Shown: positions 36,002 through 53,502, numbered from the stretch's first letter. The stretch is DNA of 64,000 nucleotides from Candidatus Latescibacterota bacterium (GCA_965219995.1 CBDCOX010000002.1:2400001-2464000); one strand, 5' to 3'. The notes: generated by a model not told the origin, from the letters alone. Numbers and translations are program-made.

Positions 36002-36919
36002 TCACACCGGATGGCGCTCGCAGCCCAGGGCCTGCGCGATGGCCCGGATGTGAGACGGACCCGCGCCGCAGCACGCCCCGATGAAGTTGATTCCCTCGGC
36101 CTTCGCCTTCAACGCGTATTGGGCCATTTCGCTGCCCGATACGATCATCGACTCCCGGATCACCGAATTGTTGGGACCCGCGTTGCGATAGCCCTGCGGC
36201 TGATAGGCGATGGGGATATCCACCGCCTCCCGCATCGCCAGGACCCCCGGCCACATGGTCATCGAGTCGCCGGAGCAGACCAGGCCCACGATATCCGCGC
36301 CTTCGTCCGCCAGGACCTTCGCGCACTCCGCGGGCGTGGCGCCGTCATGCGTCCGGCTGCTCGAGCCCATCAGAACCATCGCGGGAACGTCGGTTTTCTT
36401 GCAGCGAGACAGGCAGAGCCGGGCCTCGTCGAGGCGGGCGAACGTTTCCGGTATCAGAAGCCCGGCGCCCGCGTCCACCATCCAGGAAATGTGTTCGTCC
36501 CACTCCGCGCACGCCCGCTCGCGCGCCTGCGCATTGTCGGGCTGATAGATATACGGACCCGTCCACGAGCCCGCGGCCGTCTGGTTCAGGCACCCGGCGA
36601 CCAGGGCTTCGTCGCCGGAAGCCTCCCTGGCCAAACGGATCGCCGTGCGGGAAATCTCCTCGAGCCGGGCCGCCTCCCCGCCGACCCCGTCACCCGATAT
36701 GTCGCGGCGTTCCAGTTGCGACCGGCTGGTCCACCAGGTCTGCGCCTGGAGCACGTGGGAACCGGCCCTGTAGAAATCCTGATGGATCTGACGCAGCGCG
36801 TCCGGATCTTCCAGGATCATCGCGGGCGTATCGTACCCCCGCCACCTAGCCTCGATGATCATCCCCCCATCGCTCAGAACAACGCCCTCGTCCAGCATCT
36901 TCAGTATGTCCATGCCCAT
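36002..36919 (-). CDS. Homocysteine S-methyltransferase (BHMT/MmuM-like), Zn-cysteines intact
   Basis: LSDGGM, HQDFYRAGS, ETF, VGLVC, IGACCG. Confidence 0.9.
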   Translation of the reverse strand: MGMDILKMLDEGVVLSDGGMIIEARWRGYDTPAMILEDPDALRQIHQDFYRAGSHVLQAQTWWTSRSQLERRDISGDGVGGEAARLEEISRTAIRLAREASGDEALVAGCLNQTAAGSWTGPYIYQPDNAQARERACAEWDEHISWMVDAGAGLLIPETFARLDEARLCLSRCKKTDVPAMVLMGSSSRTHDGATPAECAKVLADEGADIVGLVCSGDSMTMWPGVLAMREAVDIPIAYQPQGYRNAGPNNSVIRESMIVSGSEMAQYALKAKAEGINFIGACCGAGPSHIRAIAQALGCERHPV

Positions 36920-37000
36920 CGTGGTTCTCCTCTGCAAGAGTCATCCCAATCCCGGTCGCCGGAGCGGCGGATACCGTCGGCGACCTTCCCTCATCGCTCC

Positions 37001-37936
37001 CTATCGCGGCCGGAGTTCGATGTGCTTCCGCTCGCAGTCCAATGCCTGGGCAACCGAACGAAGGAGTCGTACGACCACCCCGTCCGACCCGCCCAGAAAT
37101 CGGATATCGTGCGCAATCGCCTTCAACGCGTACTGTCCCAGCTCCATCCCGTAGACGTGCATGCCCTCCCGCATGTGCTTCCAGTGCGGCCGGCACGTCC
37201 GGTACCCGTTCGGCAGGAAGGCAATCGGCACGTCCACGGCCTCCCGCATTTCCAGCACCACCGGCCACAGGTCCTCCGGTTCCCGAATCCCGCCGCCGCC
37301 CAGGACGTCGGACCCGTCGCCGGCCAGAACACGCGCGCATTCGGCGGGCGCGACGCCGTCGGCTGTTACTTCGTCGTCTCCAAGGAGCGGATTGTTCAAT
37401 CGGCCGTCCGGCAACGCGACGTCCATGGAAACCACGACCGGAAGCGCTGTCTTCCTGCAGCAGGCCAGCGCCAGGCGCGCCTCGTCCAGCCGACCGAAGG
37501 ACTCGCAGACGAGGAGATCCACGCCCGCGTCTGCCAATATCTCCACCTGCTCCTCCCACTCCGCCACGGCGCGGCCCGCCGATCCGGCATCGCCGGCCTG
37601 AAAGGCGTCCGTTGGTAACAACGTACCCGCGACCAGCGCCTCCGGTCCGGCCGCGCGTTTCGCCAGGGCCACGGCCCGCCGGTTCAATGCGTCGACCGGG
37701 TCGCCCCCGCCCCCTGTCCCACGTTCGCCAACGCCGGTTCGCGTACACCGGCCCGTGAGGGCTCTGATCACACCGGCGCCGGCCCGGAAGAAATCCTGGT
37801 GGACCAGCCGCACCGCGTCCGGGAAGTCCTCGAGCACCCACGGCGCCGTGTACCCCCGCAGCCTCAGCTCCTCCTCGTTTCCACCGTCGGCCAGCACAAA
37901 CCCATCCTTAAGAGCACCTAAGACAGACTCAGCCAT
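37001..37936 (-). CDS. Homocysteine S-methyltransferase-fold protein lacking the Zn-ligand cysteines
   Basis: LADGG, HQDFFRAGA, ESF, MREAVDVPIA, QYALKA shared with the neighbour, but LGGGG and LGGSDG replace the Cys motifs. Confidence 0.85.
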   Translation of the reverse strand: MAESVLGALKDGFVLADGGNEEELRLRGYTAPWVLEDFPDAVRLVHQDFFRAGAGVIRALTGRCTRTGVGERGTGGGGDPVDALNRRAVALAKRAAGPEALVAGTLLPTDAFQAGDAGSAGRAVAEWEEQVEILADAGVDLLVCESFGRLDEARLALACCRKTALPVVVSMDVALPDGRLNNPLLGDDEVTADGVAPAECARVLAGDGSDVLGGGGIREPEDLWPVVLEMREAVDVPIAFLPNGYRTCRPHWKHMREGMHVYGMELGQYALKAIAHDIRFLGGSDGVVVRLLRSVAQALDCERKHIELRPR

Positions 37937-37973
37937 AAAACCGCTCCTCTCCTATAATCGTCTCACGTCTAAC

Positions 37974-38274
37974 ATCGGTGAGAGGTAAGACGGGAGACGG
38001 TAGATGACATCTTTGCCCGATTGGATTTTCCTTTATGCCTCCGGCAAGAAATGAAACCGCACCAGGCAATCACATCCTCTACCGTCTCACCTCTACCCTC
38101 TCCCCGCCCTTGAGGGGCCGGGGGGAGAGGTCGCCAAAAATCGGTGAGAGGTAAGAGGGTAGACGGTAGATGACATCCTTGCCCGTTCGGTTCTTCCTTG
38201 ATGCCTCCGGCAAGAAATGCAACCGCACCTGGCAGTCACATCCTCTCCCGTCTAACGTCTTACGTCTTCCCGCC
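37974..38274. repeat. Two 135-bp direct repeats (37974-38108, 38140-38274), each with inverted heptamer-periodic arms
   Basis: ATCGGTGAGAGGTAAGA...GACGGTAGATGACATC...ATGCCTCCGGCAAGAAATG...TCACATCCTCT.CCGTCT...CCCGCC repeated at period 166. Confidence 0.92.
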
Positions 38275-40277
38275 TAATGCCAGCTGTGAACCCTGTGCCC
38301 CGAATGCGGGAACCAGATGGCGTCCACGACCGTGCCCGCGATCACCGCGACGATATATGCCGTGAGGATCCCGATGAAAAAGGGCAGCGACCGCCGGTAG
38401 AATGCCGTGCCGCCGATCCTCAGCATTAGGAACTTGATCAGCCACGCGACCAGTAGCGTGAGGCTTTCCAGCCTGGCGAATATCGTTCCCGACAGCGCGA
38501 ACCCGATCGGATGCAGCCGCCATCGGGGCAGCCGGTACCGCATCAGGTTCAGGGCCGTCATCACAACCACGCCCGCCAGGAACAGCCAGTATTCCACGGC
38601 CAGGATGGGCCTGGGGTTGCGCAGGGCATCCACGGCCAGGCCGTAGTGCCATTCACCCTCGTGAAGGATCAGCCAGTTCGGCTGGAAATTGTATCCCCCC
38701 ATGGTGTAGGCCATCCAGACCGTTTGGAGCGTGGAAACCACCGTGCCGACCATGAACGCCCCGAACACCCCCCAGAAAAAGCGCCGTTTGCCTTCGGGGA
38801 TGAAGTCCCCCAGCCGGTTCACCTGCGCGATCACCGGCAGCGCGAAGCTCCTGGGGTGGTTGACCGTGAACGACAGCAGGCTGGAGGCGGCGTTCGTGGA
38901 CGGGTTCAGCCTGTGCGCTCCGCCCAGCCCGAACAGCGCGTAGTCCCAGGCCACCGCCGGCGGATCCACGTAGACAAGCCCCGAGTCGGCGACCACCTTC
39001 GCCACGCCGATGTAGACGATGAACATGGCCGGCGTCAAGACCAGGATCATCGCCGGCTCGATGCCGACCTGCGCGAGCCAGGCCGCAATGTACACGAAGC
39101 AGACGACCAGCCCGATCACAGCCGCACGATAGGATATCCACTCCCTGCTGTCGTCCAGGGCGGAACCGCCGGGGCGGACCGCCTTCCGGAATACCTCCCG
39201 AAGGTGCCCCCTGGAAATCCAGAGCCACCAGATGACCAGCGCCGCGAAGGCGCCGGCCGTCTGGAACTTGTAACTCGTCAGGTTATACGGACCGGAACCG
39301 TAGTGCGGGGACGTCGCCACCACGCCCAGCCGGTTCAGAATTCCGGCTTCGATCATGTAGAGGATATCGAAGAACCAGATACTGAAGAGGACTTCCAGGT
39401 TGGCGAAATAGGAAAAGCAGATGACGAATATACTCAGATAGACGCAGAACGGGGGATACTGTTTCGGCAGGAGGTCCCACACATAGTTCATGCGGGTGTT
39501 CATCACCCGGGGAAAGGCCGGATAGAACCAGTGCACCATATTCAGCCAGAAAATCCCCGACGTCAGCCCGAAGCCCGCCCAGAAGGCCTTTCCCTTCATG
39601 AATTCCGGCAGGACCCGCTCCCCGGACCCGCTCCGGTTCGCCATTTCCAGGACGGGTGTGAGCGCGGGGTAGACCAGCTTTTCGTGGTCCGCCCACTGGC
39701 GGTGAAGAATCACCGACACGCAGACACAGGCAAACCCGAGAACGGCGATAAAGCCGAACCACCACAACAGCGGTCCCCACCAGTCGTGCCAGGGAATGGA
39801 CATCCCGGCCGGAAGGCCTTCGAAAAACATGGTGATGGACTGCCGTTCGTCCGTCGAGATCAGCCAGCCGGGAAGATGCGGGTGCAGATACTCCGACCAC
39901 CGGTTCTCGGGTGTGGCGAAGTAGTACGGCGCCACCATCTGGCTGACGAGATATCCGCTGATCCCGTACGTGGGGCCCATGGCGCTGACCAGGACCATGC
40001 CGAAAATCGTGATCCATTCCGCGGGCGCCAACACGAAACGCCGGCCGAACCATCGGGCAAACGCGGCGCAAATGAGCAACGACAGCAGAAAGAGCAGGAG
40101 GTTGCCCATGGGGATCAGGCTGATGGCCATATACGACCCGTGCTGGACGTAACGCATCGTATTGGCGAGCAGATTGACGGCTACGGACAGCCCAAGCCCG
40201 AAACCGACAGCGCGAGTCGTTACGCCCCCCCGCACCGGATACCGTTTCCGCGGTGCCGCCGTGCCGCCTTCCGCCAT
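38274..40277 (-). CDS. DUF6785/DUF6784 polytopic membrane protein, copy B
   Basis: Clear paralogue of 30278-32305 (PYYFATPENRW, HRQWADHEKLVYP, LHPIGF). Confidence 0.85.
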   Translation of the reverse strand: MAEGGTAAPRKRYPVRGGVTTRAVGFGLGLSVAVNLLANTMRYVQHGSYMAISLIPMGNLLLFLLSLLICAAFARWFGRRFVLAPAEWITIFGMVLVSAMGPTYGISGYLVSQMVAPYYFATPENRWSEYLHPHLPGWLISTDERQSITMFFEGLPAGMSIPWHDWWGPLLWWFGFIAVLGFACVCVSVILHRQWADHEKLVYPALTPVLEMANRSGSGERVLPEFMKGKAFWAGFGLTSGIFWLNMVHWFYPAFPRVMNTRMNYVWDLLPKQYPPFCVYLSIFVICFSYFANLEVLFSIWFFDILYMIEAGILNRLGVVATSPHYGSGPYNLTSYKFQTAGAFAALVIWWLWISRGHLREVFRKAVRPGGSALDDSREWISYRAAVIGLVVCFVYIAAWLAQVGIEPAMILVLTPAMFIVYIGVAKVVADSGLVYVDPPAVAWDYALFGLGGAHRLNPSTNAASSLLSFTVNHPRSFALPVIAQVNRLGDFIPEGKRRFFWGVFGAFMVGTVVSTLQTVWMAYTMGGYNFQPNWLILHEGEWHYGLAVDALRNPRPILAVEYWLFLAGVVVMTALNLMRYRLPRWRLHPIGFALSGTIFARLESLTLLVAWLIKFLMLRIGGTAFYRRSLPFFIGILTAYIVAVIAGTVVDAIWFPHSGHRVHSWH

Positions 40278-40292
40278 GGATCCCCCGTTCGT

Positions 40293-41489
40293 TTACGCCG
40301 AGCGCAACCCCACGCCGCCCGGGTCCGCGGGTAGTTCGCCTGCCGCCCGATCCCCGTTCGGGCGAAAATCGGGAACCCGCATCAGCCGGCTCCCTTCCTG
40401 TATCGAGTCGATCGCCCGTACTGCCGCGGCGACCGTATCCATGGCCCTGTACACGTCGAATTCCAGGGGCTTCCCGTCGAGAACTGCATCGCGAAAGTGC
40501 ATATGCACATAGGAATCCGCGTCGCCGTGGCCGCTGCCGCGCGCCTCGGGAGCAGCGTCCGTGCGTTCGTAATGCCAGTCCACTTCCGACCAGTCGTTCA
40601 TCTGCGCGTCCGCGAACCAGACTTTCGGCATCTCGCTGCGCGACCGGCGCCACTCCAGGCTCCCCTTCGTGCCGATCAGCTGCCACCAGTGGTGGTCTCC
40701 GTGCGGGCGCGGCTGCGTATGGCCGTCCAGCATGCGAATCAGCGTATCCTTTTCGGTCTTCATCAGCGCCACCTGCACATCGGGCTTTCCAATCTGAGGA
40801 TGCGCGTAGCTCGGTCTCTTCGTGCTCATCGCCGTCACTTCGGTCACCCGGTCGTCCAGGATCTTCAGCAGGATGCTCAGATCGTACGAGGCGGCGATGA
40901 TGGGCGGCGTGTCGTGCGGAAACGTCGGACGGGCCTCGGGATGCTCGGGCAGTTCCTCGATCGAATATTGCCTGCCGGTTGTGTAGTCCTGAAAAAACTG
41001 ATGCGTACCGTAATACCCGACGTACTGGCCTTCGGCATACGTAATCTTGCCCAGGCGTCCATCGTCAACCAGGCGCTTCCATCCGTCCACGAACCCCCAG
41101 AACCGGGTCTGCTCCGCCAGGCTGTAGACCAGCCCCGTACGCTCCACGTTCGTCAGGATTCGCCAGCATTCCTCCATCCTGTACGCGCCGGGCACTTCGC
41201 TGTTTACGTGCTTGCCCGCTTCCAGCGCCTCCGCCGCCATCCGCCCCACCTCACGCTGCCGCACCACGAGACCCACCGCGTCCATCGGTTCATAAGCCAG
41301 GAACGCTTCGTAGTCGCTGAACGCGGCCACCTCGTCACGGTAGGAAATCCCGGCAAGGGCCCGATCCTGAAGCGGTTCGATCCAATCGTAGACCGCTGCG
41401 ATCCGGTAGCCGGGGATGTTCTGCAGCAGCCTGATCCAGTGCAGCCCCCGGTTTCCCAGGCCCGCGATCCCAATGCGAATTTCATCCAT
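40293..41489 (-). CDS. Gfo/Idh/MocA-family protein, GH109-like (EVP type), copy B
   Basis: GLGNRG, GKHVNSEVPGA, SGHGDADS; close paralogue of 33633-34853. Confidence 0.85.
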   Translation of the reverse strand: MDEIRIGIAGLGNRGLHWIRLLQNIPGYRIAAVYDWIEPLQDRALAGISYRDEVAAFSDYEAFLAYEPMDAVGLVVRQREVGRMAAEALEAGKHVNSEVPGAYRMEECWRILTNVERTGLVYSLAEQTRFWGFVDGWKRLVDDGRLGKITYAEGQYVGYYGTHQFFQDYTTGRQYSIEELPEHPEARPTFPHDTPPIIAASYDLSILLKILDDRVTEVTAMSTKRPSYAHPQIGKPDVQVALMKTEKDTLIRMLDGHTQPRPHGDHHWWQLIGTKGSLEWRRSRSEMPKVWFADAQMNDWSEVDWHYERTDAAPEARGSGHGDADSYVHMHFRDAVLDGKPLEFDVYRAMDTVAAAVRAIDSIQEGSRLMRVPDFRPNGDRAAGELPADPGGVGLRSA

Positions 41490-41519
41490 TTACGTTTCTC
41501 CGGAACCGGTTGGAAGGCA

Positions 41520-42230
41520 TCAGTCGAGTTGAAACCGGATGTAGATGTACATACGCACCTCAACCGCCTCGCGGTTCTGGTACCCGGGCAGATATCGAAA
41601 ACCGGAGAGGGCGTCCAGCGATGCCTGGTGAAACATCTCGTGCCCCTTGTGTACCACGCTATCCTTGACCCGGCCGTCCTTTCCCACTGTAAATTCCATC
41701 AGGACAACCCCCTCCAGGCCCGCCCGCCGCGCCGCTTCCGGATATTCCGGATCCACTTGTTCGAGGAGTTTGGGCTTTCGTTCCACGAACCGGGCGGGAT
41801 AGACCACTTCCCCATCCACTTCCTCCTCCGCAAGGGGACCCGAGACAAGCGAGTCCGGGGGCGTGGAGATGCGGATGGACACCGCGTCGAAGTCGAGTTG
41901 GCCGCCGGCGGAAACGGTGATCTCTTCGGGCAGCAGGTCGCGGCTATCCGCTTCGAGGGGTACCGCCGGCCGCACAAGCGGCGGCAGCCTTATGCCCTGC
42001 CTGGTTTCCGGTACCTCTGTCACCTGGATGAGAATCGGATGTTTCGCGGAGGCCGGCGCGCTGAGTCTGAAGGCCGGGAAAGTAAAGGCAACGGCGGCGT
42101 GGAGGACGAGCGATATCCCGACGCACAGGGGGAAGACCTTCCGATACTGCGCCTTCAAGTCCGCTTCGGGACGTCTGGTTCGGATGATGTTTCCGGTGAT
42201 CCAGGGTCTGGGAGGCAGCTGCTGCGGCAT
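41520..42230 (-). CDS. tonB: Energy transducer TonB
   Basis: Single TM with SxxxH (ISLVLH), Pro-rich linker, PEYPEAARRAGLEGVVLMEFTVGKDGRV C-terminal domain. Confidence 0.9.
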   Translation of the reverse strand: MPQQLPPRPWITGNIIRTRRPEADLKAQYRKVFPLCVGISLVLHAAVAFTFPAFRLSAPASAKHPILIQVTEVPETRQGIRLPPLVRPAVPLEADSRDLLPEEITVSAGGQLDFDAVSIRISTPPDSLVSGPLAEEEVDGEVVYPARFVERKPKLLEQVDPEYPEAARRAGLEGVVLMEFTVGKDGRVKDSVVHKGHEMFHQASLDALSGFRYLPGYQNREAVEVRMYIYIRFQLD

Positions 42231-42385
42231 TGTACCCTCCACGTTGCCTGCACGGCCGGCCCACATGCGTTCAACGCGCGTTTACAGGGTACAGCAATCC
42301 ATCGGAAATTCGCAGGCGATAACCCGGAGGAATCCGGTTCACGCAGCTTCGGACGTGCGTCCCGATGCCCGCGCCATCGCCCTGA

Positions 42386-45154
42386 CTAATGCGTCGCTTC
42401 CCTCACCCAGAAGAGGCCTTCCTTCGTCGCCTGCTGCCCGCTGTTCATGTCCTTTACGGTCATCCGGACCCTGCGGCGCCCCGCGGCGGCCTCTCCGATG
42501 TCCAGCGCCACGTAATCCGCAACCGACGCGTCGGTTCCTGTCTGAACGTAACGAACGGTCACGGCCGACTCGGACCGTCCCAGGACCCTCGTCCTCAGGC
42601 GTGAGAGGCTGGTGCCGCTCTCGTCCGTGCTATAGACCTCGTAAGTCACCTCGTAGCGCGTCGCCCCGAATTCGTCCTGCTTTAGATTGTAGATTTCGAA
42701 AAAGACGAACACGTGCTGGCCCGCATTGAAAACATGCGAAGGCAGCGGCGTGATACTCCATCTCCCGCGGACGAACTTCGGGTCGGACCCGGGCATCGCG
42801 GCGGTCACCTGCCGCGCCACGAACAAATCGCTCAGCTTCAGCCCTTCCCCGGAGTAATCCTCCACGGAAAGCTTCTGGGAATACGCCTGCAGCCGTTTCG
42901 TGTTGTGGCGCTGCACCTGCACGGCCAATTCGTAGTCTCCCGGAAGAATATCCAGGAGATCCACGCGGTCCAGAAGGGCCCGGTCGCGGCGCCGGCCGGT
43001 GACCGGCACCTCAAGATCCTGCTGCATGGCCAACACCCTCGTGTACCTGCCGTCCAGCAGCGCCACGCGCCGGTTCACCATCACGTTTTCGTCCGTATCC
43101 CCGGGAAGCGCAACGTGCTCGATGGGAATGCCCACGTTGACCTGGATTTCCGTACCGGCGTTGTCCCCCCGGAAAGTGACCACGTCGTAGCTGAAGTCGA
43201 GCGATTCGAAACCCGCCACGCTGAAGTACTCGGGCTCTTCCCGCGCCACGGACGCGACACGGGTTGAAGGCGCCAGTTCCGTGAGCCGCTGCATGAGCCG
43301 CAGATAGGCCATCTGACCCACGTGCGGGTCCTCGTCGAGGTTCTTGAGGTCCTGGCTGCTCACGCCCGGCACAGGCGCGTAGTCGTATACGCCGGAGTTC
43401 TGTTCATCCGTGAACGCGACTTCCAGGCCCTTTCCCACGCCGGCATACACCCAGACCTCCCACGGTACCGACGCCCAGTTGTGCCCCGTTGTGACCGGCT
43501 TCCACCCGCTCAGGCCGATGGCGAATTCCGGATCGAGATCGATGCCGGCCTGTATGGGGGATTCTTCGAGGTCCACCAGTTCCTGCGGCGCCGCCGGGTT
43601 GCCCGCGGCGCCCGGGTCGGCCTGGTCCGGCGCAAATACAGCCAGGTCGAGTTCCTCGATTACGGCCGTCTGGAGGTCGCGCCGGATGTCTTCGCTGGGC
43701 TCCAGAAAGGAGCCGAGATCCGTACGTACCGGAAAAACGGGTCCCACAAAACTAATGCCGAGTCCCTGTGCGCCGTACAGCTGGTAGGCCATATTGTCCT
43801 GCACGCGTTCGACCGCGGGAGGCACTTTCGGATTCGGCTGGATTGAGGAGGAGCGGTAGTCCGGATCCCCGTATCTGATATACACTTCTCCGCGGCGGTC
43901 CCACGGCCACTTCAACGTGCCATACGTCGTACGGGCGAACCACACCCGCCGGTGGTGTTCGGCACGGCGCATCGCGCCCCTCGAGGCCTTGAACGGGTCG
44001 TGGCGAAGCCAGAAGCGCTGGAGAAACGCGGCCCGCTTTTCGGGGGGGGTGTTGCGATAGGCTTCGATTTCACGCGGCAGCCCCACCAGCGATATGTCCC
44101 GGTAAAGCGCCTGCTCTTCCGGATCCAGGCTCTCGATGTAGATCTTGAACGCACGGAGGGCGCCTTCGTAATTCCCCCGCGCCATCAGCGCCTGCGCGAG
44201 AAGCGGCAGTGCGAGGTCGTCGGTCATCAGAGACGTAAGGGTTTCGACTTCCTCGAATTTCTCTTCTTCGAGCAACTCGTTTGCAAATGCCAGCGCATCC
44301 GTCTGATCCGCCGGCTTCAGTTCCAGGTATTTTTCAAAATACACCATTGCGCTCTGAAGGTCGCGATCCTCACGGTGGGCCCGGGCCAGCAGCAGGTGAG
44401 CCGGGCCATACCGCGGATCGAACTCAAGCGCGCGGTCCGCGGCCCGCCTCGCTCCGGGACGCCCGGTTTCCTGGTAGACACGCGCAAGCAGATAGTGCGT
44501 TTCGGCACGGGTCGAATCGGCGCGCAGCGCGGCTTCGAGATGCGGCAGCGCCCGCTCGGGATCTCCCTCCAGTTCGAGGGTGAGCCTGCCCAGGCCGTGA
44601 TGCGCAGCGGCCTGCTCCGGGTCGAATCCGAGCGCGCGTTCAAACGCCGCACGCGCACTGTCCGGGGCGCCGGCCTTCAGACGCTGGCGACCGACCTGAG
44701 CAAGCGCCCGCGCAAGATACGTGTGCGTCCAGGCATACGTGGAATCGGCGCGCAGTGCGGCTTCCAGATGGGGCAACGCCCTCCCGGGGTCTCCTTCCAG
44801 CTCGAGGGCCACCCTCCCCAGGCCGCAATGCGCCGTGGCCAGCATCGGGTCGAATCCGACCGCACGCTCGAACGCCGAGCAGGCGTCGCGGGCCCTCCCC
44901 ACCCGCAGGTAGAGCATACCGACGCGGTTCAGGATGAGTCCCGCGTGGTCCGGATGGTCGACAAGCGCCCGCTCCAGCGACCGCGCCGCCTTCACCACCG
45001 CCGGCACGTCGCGGGCCTTGATTCCACGCGCGTACACGGCATCCAGTTCCGATAACGGTTTTCCGGCAGCCGACGCGTTACACGGCCAGAGCGCGGCGAC
45101 GATCAGCGCACAACCCAGCATTGCGCGCAAACGCAATCTCCGGCAAACCTCCAT
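42386..45154 (-). CDS. Secreted TPR-repeat plus GWxTD-domain protein
   Basis: Signal peptide, multiple TPRs, FLQRFWLRHDP...EHHRRVWFA...PWDRRGEVYIRYGDPD (GWxTD-family core), WEVWVY, C-terminal beta domains. Confidence 0.85.
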   Translation of the reverse strand: MEVCRRLRLRAMLGCALIVAALWPCNASAAGKPLSELDAVYARGIKARDVPAVVKAARSLERALVDHPDHAGLILNRVGMLYLRVGRARDACSAFERAVGFDPMLATAHCGLGRVALELEGDPGRALPHLEAALRADSTYAWTHTYLARALAQVGRQRLKAGAPDSARAAFERALGFDPEQAAAHHGLGRLTLELEGDPERALPHLEAALRADSTRAETHYLLARVYQETGRPGARRAADRALEFDPRYGPAHLLLARAHREDRDLQSAMVYFEKYLELKPADQTDALAFANELLEEEKFEEVETLTSLMTDDLALPLLAQALMARGNYEGALRAFKIYIESLDPEEQALYRDISLVGLPREIEAYRNTPPEKRAAFLQRFWLRHDPFKASRGAMRRAEHHRRVWFARTTYGTLKWPWDRRGEVYIRYGDPDYRSSSIQPNPKVPPAVERVQDNMAYQLYGAQGLGISFVGPVFPVRTDLGSFLEPSEDIRRDLQTAVIEELDLAVFAPDQADPGAAGNPAAPQELVDLEESPIQAGIDLDPEFAIGLSGWKPVTTGHNWASVPWEVWVYAGVGKGLEVAFTDEQNSGVYDYAPVPGVSSQDLKNLDEDPHVGQMAYLRLMQRLTELAPSTRVASVAREEPEYFSVAGFESLDFSYDVVTFRGDNAGTEIQVNVGIPIEHVALPGDTDENVMVNRRVALLDGRYTRVLAMQQDLEVPVTGRRRDRALLDRVDLLDILPGDYELAVQVQRHNTKRLQAYSQKLSVEDYSGEGLKLSDLFVARQVTAAMPGSDPKFVRGRWSITPLPSHVFNAGQHVFVFFEIYNLKQDEFGATRYEVTYEVYSTDESGTSLSRLRTRVLGRSESAVTVRYVQTGTDASVADYVALDIGEAAAGRRRVRMTVKDMNSGQQATKEGLFWVREATH

Positions 45155-46229: not shown

Positions 46230-48758
46230 TTAGCGAATGATGACCAGCTTGGCGCCCTTCACCTGTCCCTGGGATTCCGACAACAGGGACTCGACGGTGA
46301 CGAAGTACACGCCGAAGGTCAACTGGGTGATATGCGTTCTGTTGAACTGGAAGAAGGCTGCTTCGCCCTCTGTCTGCGAATCGTGGTCCACTTCGCCCAC
46401 CAGGTCGCCGGCTACGGAGAAGATCCTGATCTTGGCCTTCCTGGGTACGTTCAGGATCCGGATCTTGGTCGAGCCCTCGTAGGTGTGCGGCGCCTCGGGG
46501 ATGTAGGGGTTCGGCACGATGAGGATATCCTTTTCCAGGCGGTCCGCGCTGGCGGTGGGCACCTGCACGGGGCTGTCGGGCGCCGAACCCGTTGGGGGCA
46601 GATAGTAGGTGGAAACGTCGCCGATTCCGGACTCGTAGGCCCGGACCCCGCCCTCCACCGTGGCGCCCGTTACCCGGCTGACGAATCCGGTATTGGCGCT
46701 CCCCTGGTAGGAGCGTACGGCGTAGTAGTACTGGAATCCCGCGAGCGACTCCGTGTCTTCGTACGCGTACTCCGCCGAACCGTTCGCCGGTACGTCCTGA
46801 ATCATCTTCCAGAGACCGGGCTGGGTCTCGGACTGGTATACGCGGTAGCCCGCCACGTCGGATTGCCCGGTATCCGGGTTGTTCGACTTCTCCGGGTCGC
46901 CCTTCCAGGTAATCAGGTTGCGGGCGTTCTCGGAAGAGGACACCATCGCGTCCACGTCCGGAGGCTGGTTGGGCAGGTCGTAACCCAACGCGTAGGCCTC
47001 CTTGGCCTTATTGAGGTGGTTGAGGAGGTTTGCGAACGCGGCGCCGTTCTCTTCCTTCTTGAGTTCGCTGGTGTCTCCCGACTTCTGATAGGCCCGGAAG
47101 TTTTCCGTAACCGGCGCGGCCGCCACGTAGGCAAACACGAACTTCACCTTCTGGCCGGGCGCCAGGTCATAGGGGCCGTAGGTTTCCAACGGGGTGTAGC
47201 CCGCGGCGATGCCGTGCCTCCCCTCCCACTCCCAACTGGGGATGGGCATATACGGCATGGGGCCGACAGGGACGTCCGGAATCGGGAGCAACGGCACGCC
47301 CAGGTTGGGATTTCCCGAGCCCCTGCTGGGACGTTCCAGCAGCGGTTCGTTGAAATAGGACGGGTCCGGCGTGCTGACCAGCATCTGGTAGAGCGTCTCG
47401 TGGTTCATCTCGTTCGGGTTCGGTTCGTCCGTGAGCAACCCGACGGCGGCCGCCGCGCTGGACGGATATCGGTACAGAAAGTGAAAGAAGTTGTACGCGA
47501 ACGGCTGCTCCGCCACCTTCGGCGCCTCGTAGGTCTCCGGATCGCCCACGAATCCGTCCGTGGGGTCCACGTCTATAGGTGCCTTTCCGATCCATGCCGG
47601 CGACGTGATGTCCCCCACGCCGATAAGACTTGGGAACGTGCACTGCGCGCACCTGTGTTCGGAGCGATACGGATCGCCGACATCGTCCGCCAGCGGCCCG
47701 GTCAGGCAGAAGTTGTCCCAGTCGTACTGGTAGGTCAGCCGGAGGCCGCGTGCGGATGCCGGACCGTCGTAATTGGGCGCCTCCGTATACTTGATCTTGT
47801 CGTCCTGGGAATTGTCCAGGGGTCCGAAATTGCTGCTGCACCCGTCTCCCGTTCCGTAGTCGGAATAGTACGCCCTGTAACTGACCCGGGAGACGCCCGC
47901 GGATGACGGCAGGAACCGGTGATGGAAGGAAAAATAGACGTTCGTGAGATTGTGCCCGCCGCCGGCGAGGTCGGACGCGCGATCGCCGTCGGTATCCCCG
48001 GTGTTCTCGAACACCCACTCGGTGATCACGAAATCGTCGTATTCCGGGTGGTTCCACGCAAAGGCCGCCTTCTCACCCGTAATGCCCAGCCCGGTGGTCC
48101 ACTTGCTCAGAACGATGTCTTCAGGAAAATTGTCGGTGGAAACGTCGTTGTACTGGCCGATGCGGTAATTCAGGATTTCCCTGGGTTCCAGCGCATCCAG
48201 CTCCACCCCGGTGCCGGGCCACCAGTTGGCCATCGATCGCCCCGAATTGGGGCTGACCACGTCGCTGCCCAGCCCCGCGTACTTGCCCCTGAAGTCCACG
48301 CTGGGATCCACCGCCATCGCCACGACGTCTTCGCTTTCTTCCATCGCCGATATGAGGGGGTTGGCCCAGCTCACCGCGGCCTCGCCGTTCACTTTGGTGG
48401 CGATCCACCATCCGTGGCCGCGGCCGTTGTGCGACGTGAGATCCACGTGCATGCTCCCGGCGCTGCGCTGTTCCCCGTAGTAGGCGGAAAAATCGTTCGT
48501 TCCGCCGCCCCCCCAGCTGATCAGCGCGAACCCCGGATAGGCCAGATCCAGATAGAGGCCGGCATAGTTCCCTTCCACCGGCCGAGCCCCTTCGGCGCCC
48601 GTGCTGAGAAAGCTGTGCCAGAGGGTGCCGCGCGCGAGGTGCCGGGGCGTCAGGGATTCACCGGCCAGGTTGGAGATGGTCGCCCGCTGGGCCTCGGCCG
48701 GACGCCAGAACGCGCCTGCGATCAGGAGTGCGCCTGTAATGATGGTTATGCGTCTCAT
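46230..48758 (-). CDS. Secreted protein with Fn3-like module and type IX secretion-like C-terminal sorting domain
   Basis: Signal peptide; ITW...DVAGYRVY...YYYAVRSY; C-terminus VPNPY...IRIFSVAGDLV...GVYFV...KLVIIR. Confidence 0.8.
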   Translation of the reverse strand: MRRITIITGALLIAGAFWRPAEAQRATISNLAGESLTPRHLARGTLWHSFLSTGAEGARPVEGNYAGLYLDLAYPGFALISWGGGGTNDFSAYYGEQRSAGSMHVDLTSHNGRGHGWWIATKVNGEAAVSWANPLISAMEESEDVVAMAVDPSVDFRGKYAGLGSDVVSPNSGRSMANWWPGTGVELDALEPREILNYRIGQYNDVSTDNFPEDIVLSKWTTGLGITGEKAAFAWNHPEYDDFVITEWVFENTGDTDGDRASDLAGGGHNLTNVYFSFHHRFLPSSAGVSRVSYRAYYSDYGTGDGCSSNFGPLDNSQDDKIKYTEAPNYDGPASARGLRLTYQYDWDNFCLTGPLADDVGDPYRSEHRCAQCTFPSLIGVGDITSPAWIGKAPIDVDPTDGFVGDPETYEAPKVAEQPFAYNFFHFLYRYPSSAAAAVGLLTDEPNPNEMNHETLYQMLVSTPDPSYFNEPLLERPSRGSGNPNLGVPLLPIPDVPVGPMPYMPIPSWEWEGRHGIAAGYTPLETYGPYDLAPGQKVKFVFAYVAAAPVTENFRAYQKSGDTSELKKEENGAAFANLLNHLNKAKEAYALGYDLPNQPPDVDAMVSSSENARNLITWKGDPEKSNNPDTGQSDVAGYRVYQSETQPGLWKMIQDVPANGSAEYAYEDTESLAGFQYYYAVRSYQGSANTGFVSRVTGATVEGGVRAYESGIGDVSTYYLPPTGSAPDSPVQVPTASADRLEKDILIVPNPYIPEAPHTYEGSTKIRILNVPRKAKIRIFSVAGDLVGEVDHDSQTEGEAAFFQFNRTHITQLTFGVYFVTVESLLSESQGQVKGAKLVIIR

Positions 48759-48780
48759 TGATTTTCTCCCCGCCTGATTG

Positions 48781-48807
48781 CGCCGGGGCAGCCGCGCCGC
48801 CCCGGCG
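48781..48807. other. GC-rich intergenic stem-loop immediately downstream of the TBDR gene
   Basis: CGCCGGGGC / GCCCCGGCG inverted repeat with no U-tract. Confidence 0.5.
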
Positions 48808-48819
48808 TCAGATACATAC

Positions 48820-51800
48820 CTAGAAACCGATCCGCACGCCCATATTCACGTACCTCGGCGTTCCGCCGCGCCTGAAATTCGAGTCGCCGTATTTCAGGTA
48901 GTTGGTGTCGTTGGGTGTGGGCTTCTTCAGGCCCCAGCGCACGTAATTGGAGCCGGAGGAGCCGTCGTAGAACGTGTTGAACAGGTTGAACACCTCCGCG
49001 TACAACGTGGGTGTGGTCGTCCCGATCCGGAATGACTTCTGGAAGTTGAGGTCCGTCCGTACGAAAATCGGACGGTTGCGGACGGTCTGCACGCTCGTGC
49101 CCGGCAGGGTGATCTGGAACTGGCTCCCGTTGTCCAGCCGCCAGACGACGTTGGCCTGGATGCCGCCCAGGATCTTTGCGCCTCCTATGGGTTCTCCGGG
49201 GCCCCAGTCCATCGGCGTGGACCACAGGAACTGGAAGGAAGCGTTCGTGGTCGGGGGCTGCCCGCGGAAGGCATCGACCTGGCGCCAGACGTCCTCGAAC
49301 CAGAGGTTCTGCATCTCCTGCTTCTCCGATTCGCTCAGGCCCGGATATTCATGCCAGGGGCGTATCGCGTCGAGCCGGTTTGTACCCCACCCCCCGACGA
49401 ACGTCGTTCCGTCCTGCAGTTTCTTTCGGATCGCCTCGTTCGCCCTGTGGCCGATCGACCGGATTTCTTCGTCGGTCAGCCGTACGATCTCGTCGTTCGC
49501 GTCCACGGTGAAGTATTTCGAACTGGCAATGAAGTTGGAGTCCGGAAACGTCGTAACCTGAAGCTGTGAACCGCCCGACCAGTTGAAGAGCACCCAACTC
49601 ACGTCCAGACCCACCCGGAATGAGAAGTTATTGGAAAATGCCTTCGTGAAACCCATCTCGATACCCTTGGTTTCCAGGCGAGCGTTGGGACCGCGGTGAC
49701 CCACGTAAGTAAGGGTCTGCACCGGGTCCGAGAACCGATGCACGCCGCCCGAACCTACCCGTTCGGTCCGGCGGTAGTAGGTGGAAAGCTCCATCACGAA
49801 GTCGCTGACGAAGTTCCACTCCCCGGTCACCTCGAACTCGGCCGTGTTCGGCAGCCCGCCCGGATTCTGATATCCGCCGTCCAGGCGCCACTGCCCGCCG
49901 CCGATCCAGTTCAGATCGTACCAGACGTCGTCCAGTTCGGGGTGGTTCTGTGCGTCGGACGTGGTCCAGGGTTCCAGCCACAGCAGGGAGAATTGCGGGG
50001 GTTTGTAGTACACACCGTATGAATACCGCACGGTGGACCGGTCCGTGATCGGGTGGGACAGGCCGATCCGCGGCGACAGGCTCGTCATCGGCCGCGTCTT
50101 CGCCAGCGGCACCCGCCCCGTGCGCCAGGCCTTGTACGTCCTCCAGCCCGGCAGGGCCTTCATGAAGCCGGACAACGTCCGCTCGGGCCCGCCCCAGAAG
50201 CTGTCGAAGCGCAGGCCGGCGTGTAACACGAGGCCCTGGAACTCCAGCTTTTCATCCACGTACGCGGCCAGCCGGTTCACCGTATACCGCTTGCCGGGCT
50301 CGCTGTTGCCGGCCATGATCTTCATCGTGGCGTTGGTCGCGCTGGACCGGTTGTAATCCCAGTTGAGGTTGCTCATGTTCTGAAACACGAAACCGGCCTT
50401 GAAGAGATTCCGCCGGGTGAGCTGACCGGTGAAGTCGTACCGCAGGCTGTACCTGTTGTTGTCTTCCACCACGATGCGCCGGCGTTCCCGGTCTATGTTG
50501 AACTGTCCCAGCTTGTCCCTTCGCCAGGACGTCGTCGTGGCGTCGACGTCTTCACCCGGGTCGGTTTTCGTCCCGTAGTACCCCACCTGGAATTCGTGGA
50601 ACATCCGGGGGTTGATGCTCTGTGTGCCCGTTACGTAGAAGATCCGGTTGACCCTGTTCTGCTGGTAACCGGTCGTGCCGTTGATGAGGAAGAGGTTGCC
50701 CCCCACCGAACGGTTGGCGTCGCCGAAGAAGGTCGGCTCGTTGGACTGGTTGAAGCCCACCTTGACCTTGAGGTTCGGCGACGGGGTGAAGCTGATCTTT
50801 CCGAAGACGCTGTGCTGCCGAAGCCCCGTCAGCGTGGGCGCGGGCAGAGTAATCTTGCCACGACTGGTTTTCCCGCTCACCACGAACGTGGCGTTCTCGC
50901 CCAGAGGACCGGTGACCCATCCTTCCACGAGGTGCCCGACGGAACTCTCGTAGTCCTGCCTGACGTGGATCAACTGTCCGGTGTCCGGATCTTTCTCGTT
51001 CACCCATTCGGAGTTGTTCCACTGCAGCCTGTCGCGCCAGTACCCGTTCGCCCCGCCGCGCTGCCCCGGCGTGGCGTCGTACACGTTGGCGCCGCGGTGC
51101 CGCTTGCCGGGTAATTCCACCCGAAGGTCGAGGCCGCCCCGGTAAATCCGCGTGCCTTCCCTGCTGATGATGTTCACCACGCCCGCGGGCGACGAGGCCT
51201 GCGAGGCGTCCGCCCCGCCCCTGACCAACCCCATTTCACCCACGGCGGTTACCGGCAGGTTCGTATACTGCCGGACGCCCGTCTGCTGCGAGGTGTCCAG
51301 GTTCATCAACTCGATACCGTCGAAGGTCCAGGTCTGTGCCGCGCGCATCGAATAATAGCTCATATGCCGGATGCGCACGCCGTTGCCGGGACTGTCGTTC
51401 ACGTTCGTGCCCACGGCGTACTGCAGGTGTTCCCTGACGCCCCTGATGATGGGCACCTGTTCGATCTCCTGCGAGGAGATCTTCGTCTCGCTGGAGGTCC
51501 GGTCCACCTCCACGAGGGGCCGCTCCGCCCTGACCACAATCTCTGCGGCTTCCAGCGCCGATTCCCGGAGCGTGAAATCGGACACGGTTGTCAAGCCGGC
51601 GGCCACCTTGACACGCTCCCGCACCACCGCTTCGTAACCGACCATCGATGCCTTCAGGGTATAGAACCCGGGCTCGACACCGATGATGGCGTAATACCCG
51701 TCGCTGTCGGACGTCGCTCCGAAACGCGTCCCGTCGACCACCACGTTGGCTCCCGGCAGGGCGCCGCCGTCGGCATCGGTCACCTGTCCGGCAATCTTGC

Positions 51801-51882
51801 CGTAGAAGGTCTGGGTCCGCGCCGGCCCGACCAGCAGGCATAACGCCGCAATTGTGCCCAAAACCATAAATCCACGCTTCAT
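48820..51882 (-). CDS. TonB-dependent receptor with N-terminal carboxypeptidase-regulatory-like domain
   Basis: GKIAGQVTD..G.LPGANV...GATSDSDGYY, plug (RGG...GVVNIISREG), AGLRFD, SPRIGLSHPI, YAEVFNLFN, terminal PR...GVRIGF. Confidence 0.93.
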   Translation of the reverse strand: MKRGFMVLGTIAALCLLVGPARTQTFYGKIAGQVTDADGGALPGANVVVDGTRFGATSDSDGYYAIIGVEPGFYTLKASMVGYEAVVRERVKVAAGLTTVSDFTLRESALEAAEIVVRAERPLVEVDRTSSETKISSQEIEQVPIIRGVREHLQYAVGTNVNDSPGNGVRIRHMSYYSMRAAQTWTFDGIELMNLDTSQQTGVRQYTNLPVTAVGEMGLVRGGADASQASSPAGVVNIISREGTRIYRGGLDLRVELPGKRHRGANVYDATPGQRGGANGYWRDRLQWNNSEWVNEKDPDTGQLIHVRQDYESSVGHLVEGWVTGPLGENATFVVSGKTSRGKITLPAPTLTGLRQHSVFGKISFTPSPNLKVKVGFNQSNEPTFFGDANRSVGGNLFLINGTTGYQQNRVNRIFYVTGTQSINPRMFHEFQVGYYGTKTDPGEDVDATTTSWRRDKLGQFNIDRERRRIVVEDNNRYSLRYDFTGQLTRRNLFKAGFVFQNMSNLNWDYNRSSATNATMKIMAGNSEPGKRYTVNRLAAYVDEKLEFQGLVLHAGLRFDSFWGGPERTLSGFMKALPGWRTYKAWRTGRVPLAKTRPMTSLSPRIGLSHPITDRSTVRYSYGVYYKPPQFSLLWLEPWTTSDAQNHPELDDVWYDLNWIGGGQWRLDGGYQNPGGLPNTAEFEVTGEWNFVSDFVMELSTYYRRTERVGSGGVHRFSDPVQTLTYVGHRGPNARLETKGIEMGFTKAFSNNFSFRVGLDVSWVLFNWSGGSQLQVTTFPDSNFIASSKYFTVDANDEIVRLTDEEIRSIGHRANEAIRKKLQDGTTFVGGWGTNRLDAIRPWHEYPGLSESEKQEMQNLWFEDVWRQVDAFRGQPPTTNASFQFLWSTPMDWGPGEPIGGAKILGGIQANVVWRLDNGSQFQITLPGTSVQTVRNRPIFVRTDLNFQKSFRIGTTTPTLYAEVFNLFNTFYDGSSGSNYVRWGLKKPTPNDTNYLKYGDSNFRRGGTPRYVNMGVRIGF

Positions 51883-52098
51883 ACGCCAACTCCTTGGCTG
51901 AAGTACCTTTCTACCATCCCGCCGGCCAACGCCCGCTCACCTGCGCTGACGGATCGGAAATGTGGATTGAAGACTCAGTGTGCGATTTAACCGCCGAAGT
52001 ACTCTCGCTCTGTGATCCTTGCCATAGGCAGGCCTCCACGTCGATGAACCGGTTAAATATGGAATCAGGTAGTTTCGATAAGGCGTCCGCAGACGAAA

Positions 52099-52764
52099 TC
52101 ATCCGGTGGCGCCGAAGTCTCCGGCGAACGCGATAAAGTCCTGAAAATCCACGGCGCCGTTTTCGTTCAGGTCGAATATCGGATTGAAAACAACGTCACC
52201 CCGGCTCGCGCCGAATGCCGCGGCAAAGCTCGAGAAGTCCGCAAAGTCGACCTTGCCGTCCGCATTGAAGTCCGACCTGAGGCGCGAAACCACCGGAACG
52301 CTGCTGAAGATGCCGGGGTTGCTGAGCGAAAGCAGCCGGCCGGGCGCCGGGTCGCCGGGACGCCAGGCGCCCGCCGGATCCCCGAGTTCCATTCCGTTCG
52401 TGAATCCGTCCCGGTCCGAGTCCAGTTGCGCGAGGCTCGGCCCCCACACCACGTTTCCGGAATAACCCGCCTCGGACAGGAACCCCTTCCGGACGGTCAC
52501 GCCGAAGGCATTCAGCGGGCCGCCCCCGCCGGTATACGCGTGGCAGCTTGCGCAGATCTCGTCGCCTTCGTTGGTCGCTTCATGCGTCGATTCCGAGAGC
52601 GGTATGTCCAGCCTGGTGGTCGTCCGGCCCCGGTCGACGTGGCAGGTGCGGCAGCGGGCCGCGTTGGCGTTGGGGACCTGAAACACCCGTTTCGGCCGCG
52701 ACTCCGCTACCCGGCACACCGCGAGGACGACGATTAGAACAACCGCTGAGGTCCGGGTGTACAT
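52099..52764 (-). CDS. Secreted protein with two CxxCH motifs, a temptin-like core and a dockerin/EF-hand-like tail
   Basis: CRTCH, CASCH; GGGGPLNAFG...W...LDSDRDGFTNGMELGDP; SDFNADGKVDFADF...FDLNENGAVDFQDF. Confidence 0.75.
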   Translation of the reverse strand: MYTRTSAVVLIVVLAVCRVAESRPKRVFQVPNANAARCRTCHVDRGRTTTRLDIPLSESTHEATNEGDEICASCHAYTGGGGPLNAFGVTVRKGFLSEAGYSGNVVWGPSLAQLDSDRDGFTNGMELGDPAGAWRPGDPAPGRLLSLSNPGIFSSVPVVSRLRSDFNADGKVDFADFSSFAAAFGASRGDVVFNPIFDLNENGAVDFQDFIAFAGDFGATG

Positions 52765-53502
52765 TTAACGCATGAAATACTTGATTCCGACCATCAGATT
52801 GAAACTGAAAATCGGAAACGTCTTCTTCAAATCCCAGTCTTCGTAAGGCCTTAATTCGCCCATCGATACGTTCCAGCGGACCCTGAAGTCCACCAGGAAC
52901 TGATCGGAGGTGCGGCGGTAGAAGCCCAGCCCCGTGTTGATCGAGAGCGCCACGTCCTCGTCCACCGTGGACTCCACCATGCCCTGCGAGTCCGTCCGGA
53001 TCTGTTCGCCCACCTGCCCCGGCCAGATCAGACCCGACACCTCGTGGGTATACCTCAGGAACCCGATGCCGGCGGCAATGTAAGGAACGCTCTGCCCGGT
53101 CCGATCGGGCTTGAATGAACGCAAACCGTTGACCACGATGCCGCCGATCCACATATTCGCCTCGGCGCCGGGACTCTTCACCAGGGAACCGCTCGCGGAT
53201 CCCAGTCCGTTGTGCCAGGTGAACTGGCGGTCGGAGAGACCGGCGTCTGAGAGCGGCGAGTACGTCACTTCCACTTCCGTCATCGTTCTGTCGGACACCT
53301 GGTACGTCAACTGCCCGACAAACGCCGGCGAAATATTGTACCAACCCTTGAGCGGCCCGGCGGGCCGCAAGGCAGATCCGTGGACGCCGAGCGCGTAACG
53401 CAAGTCCTGCGCGTGCGGCGCGGACGTGATACCGAGTCCGAACAGAATAAACGCGCCCAGGACCGGGACGAGCGCCAATCTGAGAATGCCCGTTGCTCTC
53501 AT
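52765..53502 (-). CDS. Outer-membrane beta-barrel protein (small OmpA/Opa-like barrel)
   Basis: Signal peptide; alternating beta-strands, VPYIAAGIG, INTGLGF, terminal VGIKYF. Confidence 0.75.
   Translation of the reverse strand: MRATGILRLALVPVLGAFILFGLGITSAPHAQDLRYALGVHGSALRPAGPLKGWYNISPAFVGQLTYQVSDRTMTEVEVTYSPLSDAGLSDRQFTWHNGLGSASGSLVKSPGAEANMWIGGIVVNGLRSFKPDRTGQSVPYIAAGIGFLRYTHEVSGLIWPGQVGEQIRTDSQGMVESTVDEDVALSINTGLGFYRRTSDQFLVDFRVRWNVSMGELRPYEDWDLKKTFPIFSFNLMVGIKYFMR

Follow-up and report, generated by a model that had tools for sequence, protein, structure and literature searches.

A recurrent cassette of a TonB receptor, a type IX-type partner and a PorV-like barrel in Candidatus Latescibacterota as a candidate SusD-less uptake locus

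A stretch of 64,000 nucleotides (hereafter referred to as the window; C2:2400001-2464000, G+C content of approximately 62%) originating from the 5.4-Mb genome (98.6% completeness) of an uncultured marine Candidatus Latescibacterota bacterium was found to carry eleven consecutive genes, all located on the minus strand, between positions 36002 and 53502. Three neighboring genes of this run encode a TonB-dependent receptor, a secreted protein of 842 amino acids (aa), here named P842, and an outer-membrane barrel of the PorV/PorQ family, and they form a cassette that recurs in fixed order within the source genome and in related genomes. We give an even chance to the reading that this cassette represents a nutrient-uptake locus resembling polysaccharide utilization loci (PULs) without SusD, in which a partner protein delivered through type IX secretion (by the T9SS) and tethered to the PorV-like barrel stands beside the TonB receptor. 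The cassette itself is real and conserved; the function proposed for it is a computational claim and mechanistically plausible.

The gene run was deduced from a listing of open reading frames (ORFs), our own codon-usage gene calls, and two libraries of hidden Markov models (HMMs), all of which agreed with the eleven minus-strand genes described in the initial annotation of this DNA. In the order of transcription, the run encodes a small outer-membrane beta-barrel (OMB), a temptin-like secreted protein, the receptor, P842, the PorV-like barrel, a protein with tetratricopeptide repeats (TPR) and a GWxTD domain, a TonB paralogue, a Gfo/Idh/MocA-type oxidoreductase (GFO), an inner-membrane protein featuring the domains DUF6785 and DUF6784, and two proteins of the homocysteine-S-methyltransferase fold (HMT2 and HMT1).

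Searches of the source genome by tblastn and blastp recovered six cassettes with the same order, [small barrel]-receptor-P842-like-PorV-like, the small barrel heading five of them. A GWxTD gene was located within a few genes in four of the six cassettes, and five had a DUF6785 gene no more than nine genes away. A pattern scan of a species-genome collection matched 268 stretches, of which 229 encode a relative; the best 80 of these 229 were taken, all being Latescibacterota by title or near-identical to such, and their six-frame ORFs were scanned with HMMs built from the paralogues of the source genome. The receptor gene lies directly upstream of the P842 gene in 80 out of 80 loci as listed, and in 78 under a strict 400-nt rule, owing to an overlap of two stop-to-stop frames. 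The PorV-like gene follows directly downstream in 78 loci, the two misses (L057 and L064) being sequences that end 39 and 158 nt after P842. Once the loci were collapsed to 20 clusters (at least 70% P842 identity, majority count within each cluster), both neighbors were present in 20/20, and the small barrel preceded the receptor in 13 clusters (53 of the 80 loci).

The genes behind the triad were distributed differently. GWxTD was found directly after the PorV-like gene in 22 loci (4/20 clusters) and anywhere within 10 kb in 34 loci (11/20 clusters); for DUF6785, the corresponding values were 10 loci (4/20 clusters) and 58 loci (13/20 clusters), its occurrence within 10 kb being expected by chance at approximately 9%, as roughly estimated from 23 copies in 5.4 Mb. 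TonB was detected in 16 loci (1/20 clusters), GFO in 32 (4/20), and HMT in 20 (5/20). The full eleven-gene order was kept only in 15 orthologous loci (L040-L054, P842 at least 85% identical), several of which carry one extra HMT gene between GWxTD and TonB. The eleven genes had initially been read together as one candidate uptake system and its linked genes; they are not one conserved system, as this survey upholds the core triad and does not extend to GWxTD, TonB, GFO, DUF6785, and HMT, all of which are variable. The fixed machine is the triad of receptor, P842, and PorV-like barrel, usually joined by the small barrel, and the other genes are accessory, changing from copy to copy. By analogy, these variable genes behind the core resemble those of PULs.

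To place the P842 family, a profile of 16 sequences was compared with 1.84 billion representative sequences, which resulted in 4917 matches at E<=1e-3; thresholds of E<=1e-10 and E<=1e-30 left 1803 and 205, respectively. Four of ten distant representatives carried organism names, namely two of candidate division KSB1, one of Rhodothermales, and one of Fidelibacterota. The triad is also present on a metagenome contig (L138) whose P842-like protein is labeled Rhodothermales by NCBI; there, the gene order is BglB-like, BT3233-family polysaccharide-utilization protein, receptor of 1047 aa, P842-like protein, PorV_fam barrel (175 bits), and a T9SS C-terminal-domain protein. Synteny across lineages is represented by this single contig together with protein names. 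Of the 151 genomes sampled within Latescibacterota, 59 matched P842 at E<=1e-20, the matches being concentrated in the family of the source genome (18/18) and its sister family (27/30) as compared to 3/64 in another family; up to seven P842 candidates were scored per genome, so that per-genome copy numbers are lower bounds. Several metagenome-assembled genomes labeled Gemmatimonadota or 'uncultured Gemmatimonas' (L040, L041, L045, L055, and others) contain loci that reach 97% identity with those of Latescibacterota-labeled genomes, and their Gemmatimonadota labels are probably wrong.

P842 is composed of a signal peptide, a beta-supersandwich core (residues ~45-595), an FN3 domain (~600-690), and a divergent type-A-like C-terminal domain (CTD, ~745-842), which is modeled as a beta-sandwich. 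In structure alignments by VIA-align, for which models without a true match typically reach a best Z of 7-8, the core matched the beta-supersandwich N-domains of GH15, GH94, GH65, and GH116 enzymes with Z values of 13.7-12 (217-273 residues, root-mean-square deviation 3.3-4.6). Its structural relatives were dextran dextrinase, cellodextrin and cellobiose phosphorylases, glucoamylase, and GH116, and galactose-mutarotase-like proteins were aligned at Z of approximately 10. Foldseek searches with the whole P842 model retrieved tandem FN3 proteins only. P842 was also considered as an enzyme, which was rejected, since Pfam scans of P842 and its relatives as well as structure alignment gave no match to a catalytic domain. 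Scanning 36 representatives of the family against Pfam revealed no match above cut-off; sub-threshold matches to CHU_C or FlgD_ig were located at the C-terminus. Judged by its sequence, the P842 tail is a divergent subclass of the type-A CTD, because comparison of 35 family tails with 19 of the genome's own canonical CTDs by hhalign scored 97.4% (E 9.4e-12) over 83 columns, which begin at the PNP motif and extend through the final residue. The only NCBIfam match of the tail was to the tail of PorZ (E 0.003, and E 4.5e-5 on L138).

The adjacent barrel falls within the PorV/PorQ family NF033709 and is neither equivalog (78 bits vs. 250 for PorV, 72.6 bits vs. 220 for PorQ), which assigns it, at the level of sequence, to a separate subfamily. 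When the complex of this barrel (26-row alignment) and P842 residues 596-842 (32-row alignment) was predicted in three runs alongside three controls, the pair scored 0.92, 0.91, and 0.91, and the best control 0.00. Of 157 solved complexes, 116 attained the docking mark, as did 2 of 215 mismatched pairs. At least 90% of the contacts were common to the runs, the partner reached a predicted local distance difference test (pLDDT) value of at least 71, and the predicted interface sets CTD residues 746-842 against the barrel loops. This model supports binding of the P842 tail to its neighboring barrel; the pairing of a CTD protein with a co-encoded PorV, as initially proposed, gains from it as well as from the invariant position of the pair behind the receptor. 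A review describes that the CTD of PorU stays on PorV and that of PorZ on PorQ, uncleaved, and its authors suggest that cognate PorV-like barrels shield CTDs from cleavage (PMC10202324).

The secretion machinery that the initial annotation had named as a check was recovered in part. SprA_N was matched with 105.7 bits in a frame of 2092 aa, a PorU-like protein of 1908 aa with a CTD scored 217.6 and 71.8 bits on the PorU model (below the cut-off of 420), and 21 canonical CTD proteins were identified by TIGR04183. The best PorV candidate of the genome lies elsewhere (PorV_fam 226 bits, PorV equivalog 147.7 bits at a cut-off of 250) and is followed by the gene for a T9SS-dependent M6-like protein. 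In addition, genes with the FGE-sulfatase domain (GldK-like) immediately follow the PorV-like gene in one of the cassettes (C2:3970936-3972596), and five more such genes form a run at C2:3564389-3569960, just upstream of a GWxTD cluster. Three paralogous proteins of ~600 aa with canonical T9SS CTDs are encoded after cassette 6 and before a DUF6785 gene (C2:4567905-4573987, L014/L137).

The N-terminal extension of the receptor is a CarboxypepD_reg domain. A profile built from six receptor paralogues matched the plugs of the solved TonB receptors FepA, PfeA, and CirA (E 3e-15, positions 112-264) and also the N-terminal extension of a SusC homologue. The receptor consists of a plug and a large barrel, the latter of which we infer from its length and its C-terminal aromatic residue. 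The small barrel carries a signal peptide, as recognized by eye, and has an alternative TTG start at position 53583. Across the whole 5.4-Mb genome, PF07980 (SusD_RagB) and PF14322 (SusD-like_3) obtained 0 matches, with a Bacteroides control matching; the absence of a SusD-like lipoprotein from the locus, noted at the outset, thereby extends to the genome.

The uptake reading can be outlined as follows. P842 would be exported by Sec and then by the type IX pathway via its divergent CTD, and would be neither cleaved nor released, staying on its own PorV/PorQ-type barrel by the CTD in the manner of PorZ-PorQ and PorU-PorV. A supersandwich of the carbohydrate-binding type on an FN3 stalk would thereby come to stand next to the receptor on the cell surface, and there P842 may contact the receptor and capture a substrate for TonB-powered import through it, filling the role that SusD and surface glycan-binding lipoproteins have in Bacteroidota. 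The variable genes would adapt each copy of the cassette; in the window, these would be the periplasmic GWxTD/TPR protein, a private TonB, DUF6785 as an importer of the OPT fold, and cytoplasmic enzymes, namely an NAD oxidoreductase of the sugar type as well as a pair made up of a BHMT-like methyltransferase and a zinc-less paralogue.

Several results weigh against this reading. The AlphaFold2 (AF2) model of P842 is moderate (pLDDT 63.9, predicted template modeling score (pTM) 0.70), and the P842 tail is not among the 21 TIGR04183 matches of the genome and scored 19.5 bits on PF18962 (cut-off 27), so that of the T9SS-like CTD first assigned to it the homology to type-A CTDs stands and the assignment by these two models does not. 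Similarly, the TonB-receptor assignment is sustained by the paralogue profile and not by Pfam, where neither Plug nor TonB_dep_Rec matched the receptor even at E<=10; on the SusC/RagA model TIGR04056, the receptor reached 44.8 bits (cut-off 368.25) at residues 29-145 only. The benchmark counts given above for the docking mark hold only roughly here, our own alignments having been used, and the docking score may mirror likeness to solved PorV-CTD complexes. For GldL, GldM (two models), and GldN, no match was obtained in the genome, the controls being silent for three of the four models and PF12081 matching the control genome only below its cut-off; GldK was represented by partial FGE-domain (FGE-sulfatase) matches only. 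In this phylum, the motor and ring of the T9SS may be divergent or may be missing. Finally, the synteny counts come from one phylum with many close relatives.

Contigs from RNA libraries bear on both sides of the balance. In three marine metatranscriptome runs that belong to one study, contigs of ~93-94% identity to the window cover positions 45209-53617 gap-free from the small barrel through the PorV-like gene, bridging the intergenic gaps. A sponge metatranscriptome run contributed short pieces, 12 of 40 at an identity of at least 99%, and the stretch 35800-45200 was covered by scattered short pieces only, which we do not read as a sign of lower expression or of a transcript end. Just below position 45209, the contigs run for more than 20 letters unlike the window, which may simply reflect divergence of the 93-94% identical relative. 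Taken together, the contigs are only compatible with co-expression of the core and show neither transcription nor a single transcript. A scan for promoters and terminators yielded 2 sites resembling promoters and 12 resembling terminators, which did not exceed the shuffle expectation; none of them lies in an intergenic gap of the minus strand.

An explanation that we consider unlikely, and the most credible of those competing with the uptake reading, is that the three genes are co-regulated and physically uncoupled: P842 would be an ordinary T9SS cargo (a secreted binding protein or an accessory of an enzyme), the barrel a cargo-specific shuttle of the kind that PorP/SprF proteins are for type-B cargo, and the receptor would import products alone without a lid. 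The predicted docking, which covers only tail and barrel, leaves room for this explanation, cargo-specific PorV-like barrels are described in PMC10202324, and other canonical CTD proteins share loci with the cassette, for example the three behind cassette 6 and one on L138. However, the order of receptor, P842, and barrel is invariant in all 20 clusters and on the Rhodothermales-labeled contig, being tighter than the linkage of any enzyme gene; P842 matches a binding-type N-domain fold and no catalytic domain; and its CTD subclass is distinct from the 21 canonical tails of the genome.

Returning to the uptake reading, the inner-membrane protein of the locus bears on its direction. The DUF6785 protein has at least nine hydrophobic segments, and its AF2 model is of high quality (pLDDT 86.9, pTM 0.89). 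Foldseek comparison of this model with the PDB identified barley Yellow Stripe 1 (YS1, 7wsr_A; E 5.4e-8, probability 1.00), with template modeling (TM) scores of 0.64/0.70 over 683 columns, the next match reaching a TM of 0.12. The Pfam family OPT (PF03169) had no match at E<=10 for seven DUF6785 paralogues; the Atlas lead 'peptide transporter', OPT, is weak at 0.79 and agrees with the fold. As modeled, DUF6785 has the OPT/Yellow-Stripe transporter fold, which fits the inner-membrane step initially assigned to it. The source genome contains 23 DUF6785 paralogues, and 102 genes beside 22 of them were scanned, the flanks of the window copy being scanned separately. The flanking genes were mostly catabolic, comprising xylose-isomerase-like TIM barrels, Gfo/Idh/MocA proteins, PhyH dioxygenases, heparinase II/III-like proteins, DegT and other aminotransferases, amidohydrolases, a sulfatase, UxuA, and enolase-superfamily enzymes. 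DUF6785 is a probable inner-membrane importer because of its OPT fold and these catabolic neighborhoods. Import through the cassette is favored because DUF6785 lies within 10 kb in 58 of the 80 loci and catabolic enzymes are encoded nearby.

Further observations concern the surroundings of DUF6785. The Gfo/Idh/MocA protein and the DUF6785 of a paralogous module in the window, which also includes an FG-GAP protein, are 75% and 61% identical to those of the run, and the module has the appearance of a segmental duplication that took in importer and oxidoreductase; it runs on to a DegT aminotransferase, a second Gfo/Idh/MocA gene, and unannotated genes down to position ~23464. Giant proteins of 1500-1570 aa with FtsX-type permease domains (one with M28) are encoded beside or between DUF6785 genes (L133:5351-10063, L121:3212-7744, and L124:4981-9498, all in the source genome).

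The linkage to an OPT-fold importer and catabolic enzymes also speaks against a second explanation, which we consider improbable, namely that the cassette is an export or display module in which an Oar-like receptor helps to secrete or display P842 or other proteins for adhesion or surface architecture. The receptor is built in general like Oar (CarboxypepD_reg, plug, and a very large barrel) and is distant from SusC in sequence, and Oar is reported to be a TonB-dependent transporter required for secretion of the protease PopC in Myxococcus (PMC6434023). On the other hand, P842 already bears an export signal of the T9SS type, and the triad on L138 lies behind glycoside-utilization genes.

The enzymes at the end of the run were assigned less specifically than before. 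GFO has no signal peptide by eye, and its C-terminal domain scored 15.6 bits on GH109_C (cut-off 27). Compared with solved structures, matches covered the N-terminal half only, with inositol dehydrogenase (7e-9), DgpA (4e-8), and GH109 (5e-8). The GH109-like character previously attributed to GFO was rejected on these grounds, inositol dehydrogenase and the C-glycoside enzyme DgpA being equally near. The best solved relative of HMT1 is betaine-homocysteine S-methyltransferase (BHMT; E 1.4e-27), and HMT1 shows C/C/C at the positions of the three zinc-ligand cysteines of BHMT. HMT2 carries G/S/D at these positions, and nine other paralogues of the genome carry C/C/C. Six full-length HMT2 orthologues from other genomes (L041, L043, L046, L052, L053, and L061; 77-89% identical) have open frames and retain GSD or GSG at these positions, a Cys-complete HMT1-type gene following directly in L046 and L061. 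From these residues, HMT2 and HMT1 may be a pair of a non-catalytic and a catalytic protein.

A second Gfo/Idh/MocA-HMT-HMT trio is located at C2:2470377-2474110, ~6-10 kb past the end of the window. Its GFO is 38% identical to that of the window; its two HMTs, which share 56% and 38% identity with HMT1, each carry the Cys triad, and neither DUF6785 nor a cassette lies alongside. GFO-HMT-HMT is a recurring enzyme set that does not point to a methylated glycoside. That all eleven genes constitute one pathway for a methylated glycoside, with GWxTD and TonB as machine parts, GFO of the GH109 type, and the HMT pair demethylating, is the least probable explanation: the 15 orthologous loci do preserve the complete order, the trio occurs a second time, and HMT1 retains the BHMT zinc site, but outside the orthologue group TonB, GFO, and HMT are confined to the few clusters given above, the HMT gene number varies even among orthologues, GH109_C remains below threshold with other enzymes scoring as well as GH109, and HMT2 lacks the zinc ligands.

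For the temptin-like protein, two CxxCH motifs were read in the sequence and the Dockerin_1 match stayed below its cut-off (17.6 vs. 22.9 bits); its N-domain was detected only in 13 loci of the orthologue group among 81 searched (L040-L119, L138). Its dockerin-like tail is shared by 75 further predicted proteins of the genome. In the GWxTD protein, TIGR04514 matched at residues 352-436, the literal motif reads PWDRRG, and Pfam GWxTD_dom was not among its matches at E<=0.01. There are 29 GWxTD-like genes in the source genome, and GWxTD is a frequent, not an obligatory neighbor of the cassette; the role for this family that the locus was at first thought to provide does not follow from the data. 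The TonB protein, one of 7 paralogues in the genome, is kept in 15/15 orthologous loci, and among the other loci searched has one match, in L108, on the opposite strand.

The features of the window are compiled in Table 1. Between the eleven-gene run and the paralogous module stands a lone plus-strand gene (35211-35990) with an NigD_C-like beta-sandwich (25.4 bits). Farther away, at positions 3456-9182 of the plus strand, a tandem duplicate was found, in which an ORF of 83 aa and then a TMEM260-like protein O-mannosyltransferase of 817 aa are encoded twice.

Table 1. Features of the window, with positions counted from its first nucleotide and the eleven-gene run given in the order of transcription.
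Feature	Position	Strand	Supporting match
OMB, small outer-membrane beta-barrel heading the cassette	52765..53502	-	weak TIGR04565 match, E 0.0017
Temptin-like secreted protein, two CxxCH and dockerin-like tail	52099..52764	-	Temptin_C 45.5 bits
TonB-dependent receptor, 1020 aa	48820..51882	-	CarboxypepD_reg 68.2 bits; plug by paralogue profile
P842, secreted protein of 842 aa	46230..48758	-	no Pfam family
PorV/PorQ-family barrel of 14-strand type, 324 aa	45245..46219	-	NF033709 176.3 bits (cut-off 90)
Secreted TPR and GWxTD protein	42386..45121/45154	-	TIGR04514 40.6 bits (cut-off 28)
TonB paralogue	41520..42266	-	TonB_C 64.5 bits
GFO, cytoplasmic Gfo/Idh/MocA oxidoreductase	40293..41489	-	PF01408 39.4 bits
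DUF6785+DUF6784 polytopic inner-membrane protein	38274..40277	-	Pfam 338.5 and 62.5 bits, both above cut-off
HMT2, homocysteine-S-methyltransferase fold	37001..37936	-	PF02574 88.1 bits
HMT1, BHMT-like methyltransferase fold	36002..36919/36937	-	PF02574 132 bits
Paralogous module outside the eleven-gene run: Gfo/Idh/MocA, FG-GAP protein, DUF6785	30278..34853	-	75% / 61% identity

In the open full-text literature, subscription journals lying outside the search, no description of the cassette or of the function of GWxTD or DUF6785 was found. The receptor-partner-anchor cassette would represent a concrete answer to how uncultured relatives of Bacteroidota, such as Latescibacterota and others, feed on polymers without SusD, and it would link type IX secretion to nutrient uptake. 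It also provides working annotations for three large unannotated families: P842 (205 representative clusters at E<=1e-30), the PorV/PorQ subfamily, and DUF6785 as a probable OPT-fold importer. More tentatively, and with somewhat less than even confidence, we propose that several phyla related to Bacteroidota build three-part importers from a receptor, a T9SS-delivered and never-cleaved capture or lid protein, and a PorV-like anchor. If this is true, type IX secretion has a second, unrecognized job in assembling uptake machines, and the SusD lipoprotein represents only one of two ways to solve a single problem.

Among known systems, barrel-associated CTD proteins provide one set of comparisons. 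As in PorZ-PorQ and PorU-PorV of Porphyromonas gingivalis, a CTD protein would sit on a barrel of the PorV/PorQ family with its CTD kept, which is predicted here. In contrast to these pairs, the pair of this study occurs six times per genome, is co-encoded and always joined to a TonB receptor, its barrel is neither equivalog, and it would serve to capture nutrients and not to process cargo. SprB-SprF and other type-B CTD cargo of Flavobacterium have a cargo-specific PorP/SprF-like barrel encoded adjacently, a cargo-specific outer-membrane barrel beside its cargo being the feature shared with the cassette. The difference lies in the barrel, which belongs here to the PorV/PorQ and not to the PorP/SprF family, in the CTD type, and in the attached receptor gene, which is not known from the SprB-SprF pairs. 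Pairs of the SprB-SprF type are named in PMC10202324.

For the inner membrane, the DUF6785+DUF6784 model superposes over its whole length on OPT/Yellow-Stripe transporters such as barley YS1 (7wsr/7wst), whereas the Pfam OPT model finds no sequence match and the bacterial copies are encoded in catabolic contexts. The receptor recalls Oar of Myxococcus xanthus, by description, in its CarboxypepD_reg domain, plug, very large barrel, and setting outside Bacteroidota. To our knowledge, Oar has no adjacent pair of a CTD protein and a PorV-like barrel, whereas the cassette receptor is adjoined by both, and Oar is tied to protein secretion.

SusC/SusD is the textbook model of glycan capture and, as far as we know, confined to Bacteroidota. 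Like SusC/SusD (RagA/RagB), the cassette begins its core with a barrel bearing a carboxypeptidase-regulatory-like extension, followed by the gene of a surface protein that would here act in capture, and as with SusC/SusD PULs, the genome holds several copies of the unit, and the catabolic genes that follow it vary. Unlike SusC/SusD, the partner is neither of the SusD fold nor a lipoprotein, being a Sec/T9SS-type protein of supersandwich, FN3, and CTD; a PorV-like barrel of its own and a small extra barrel ahead complete the cassette, and the receptor remains below the SusC/RagA model. The cassette is SusC/SusD-like in its proposed working and not a member of that system, having no SusD and a receptor outside the SusC family.

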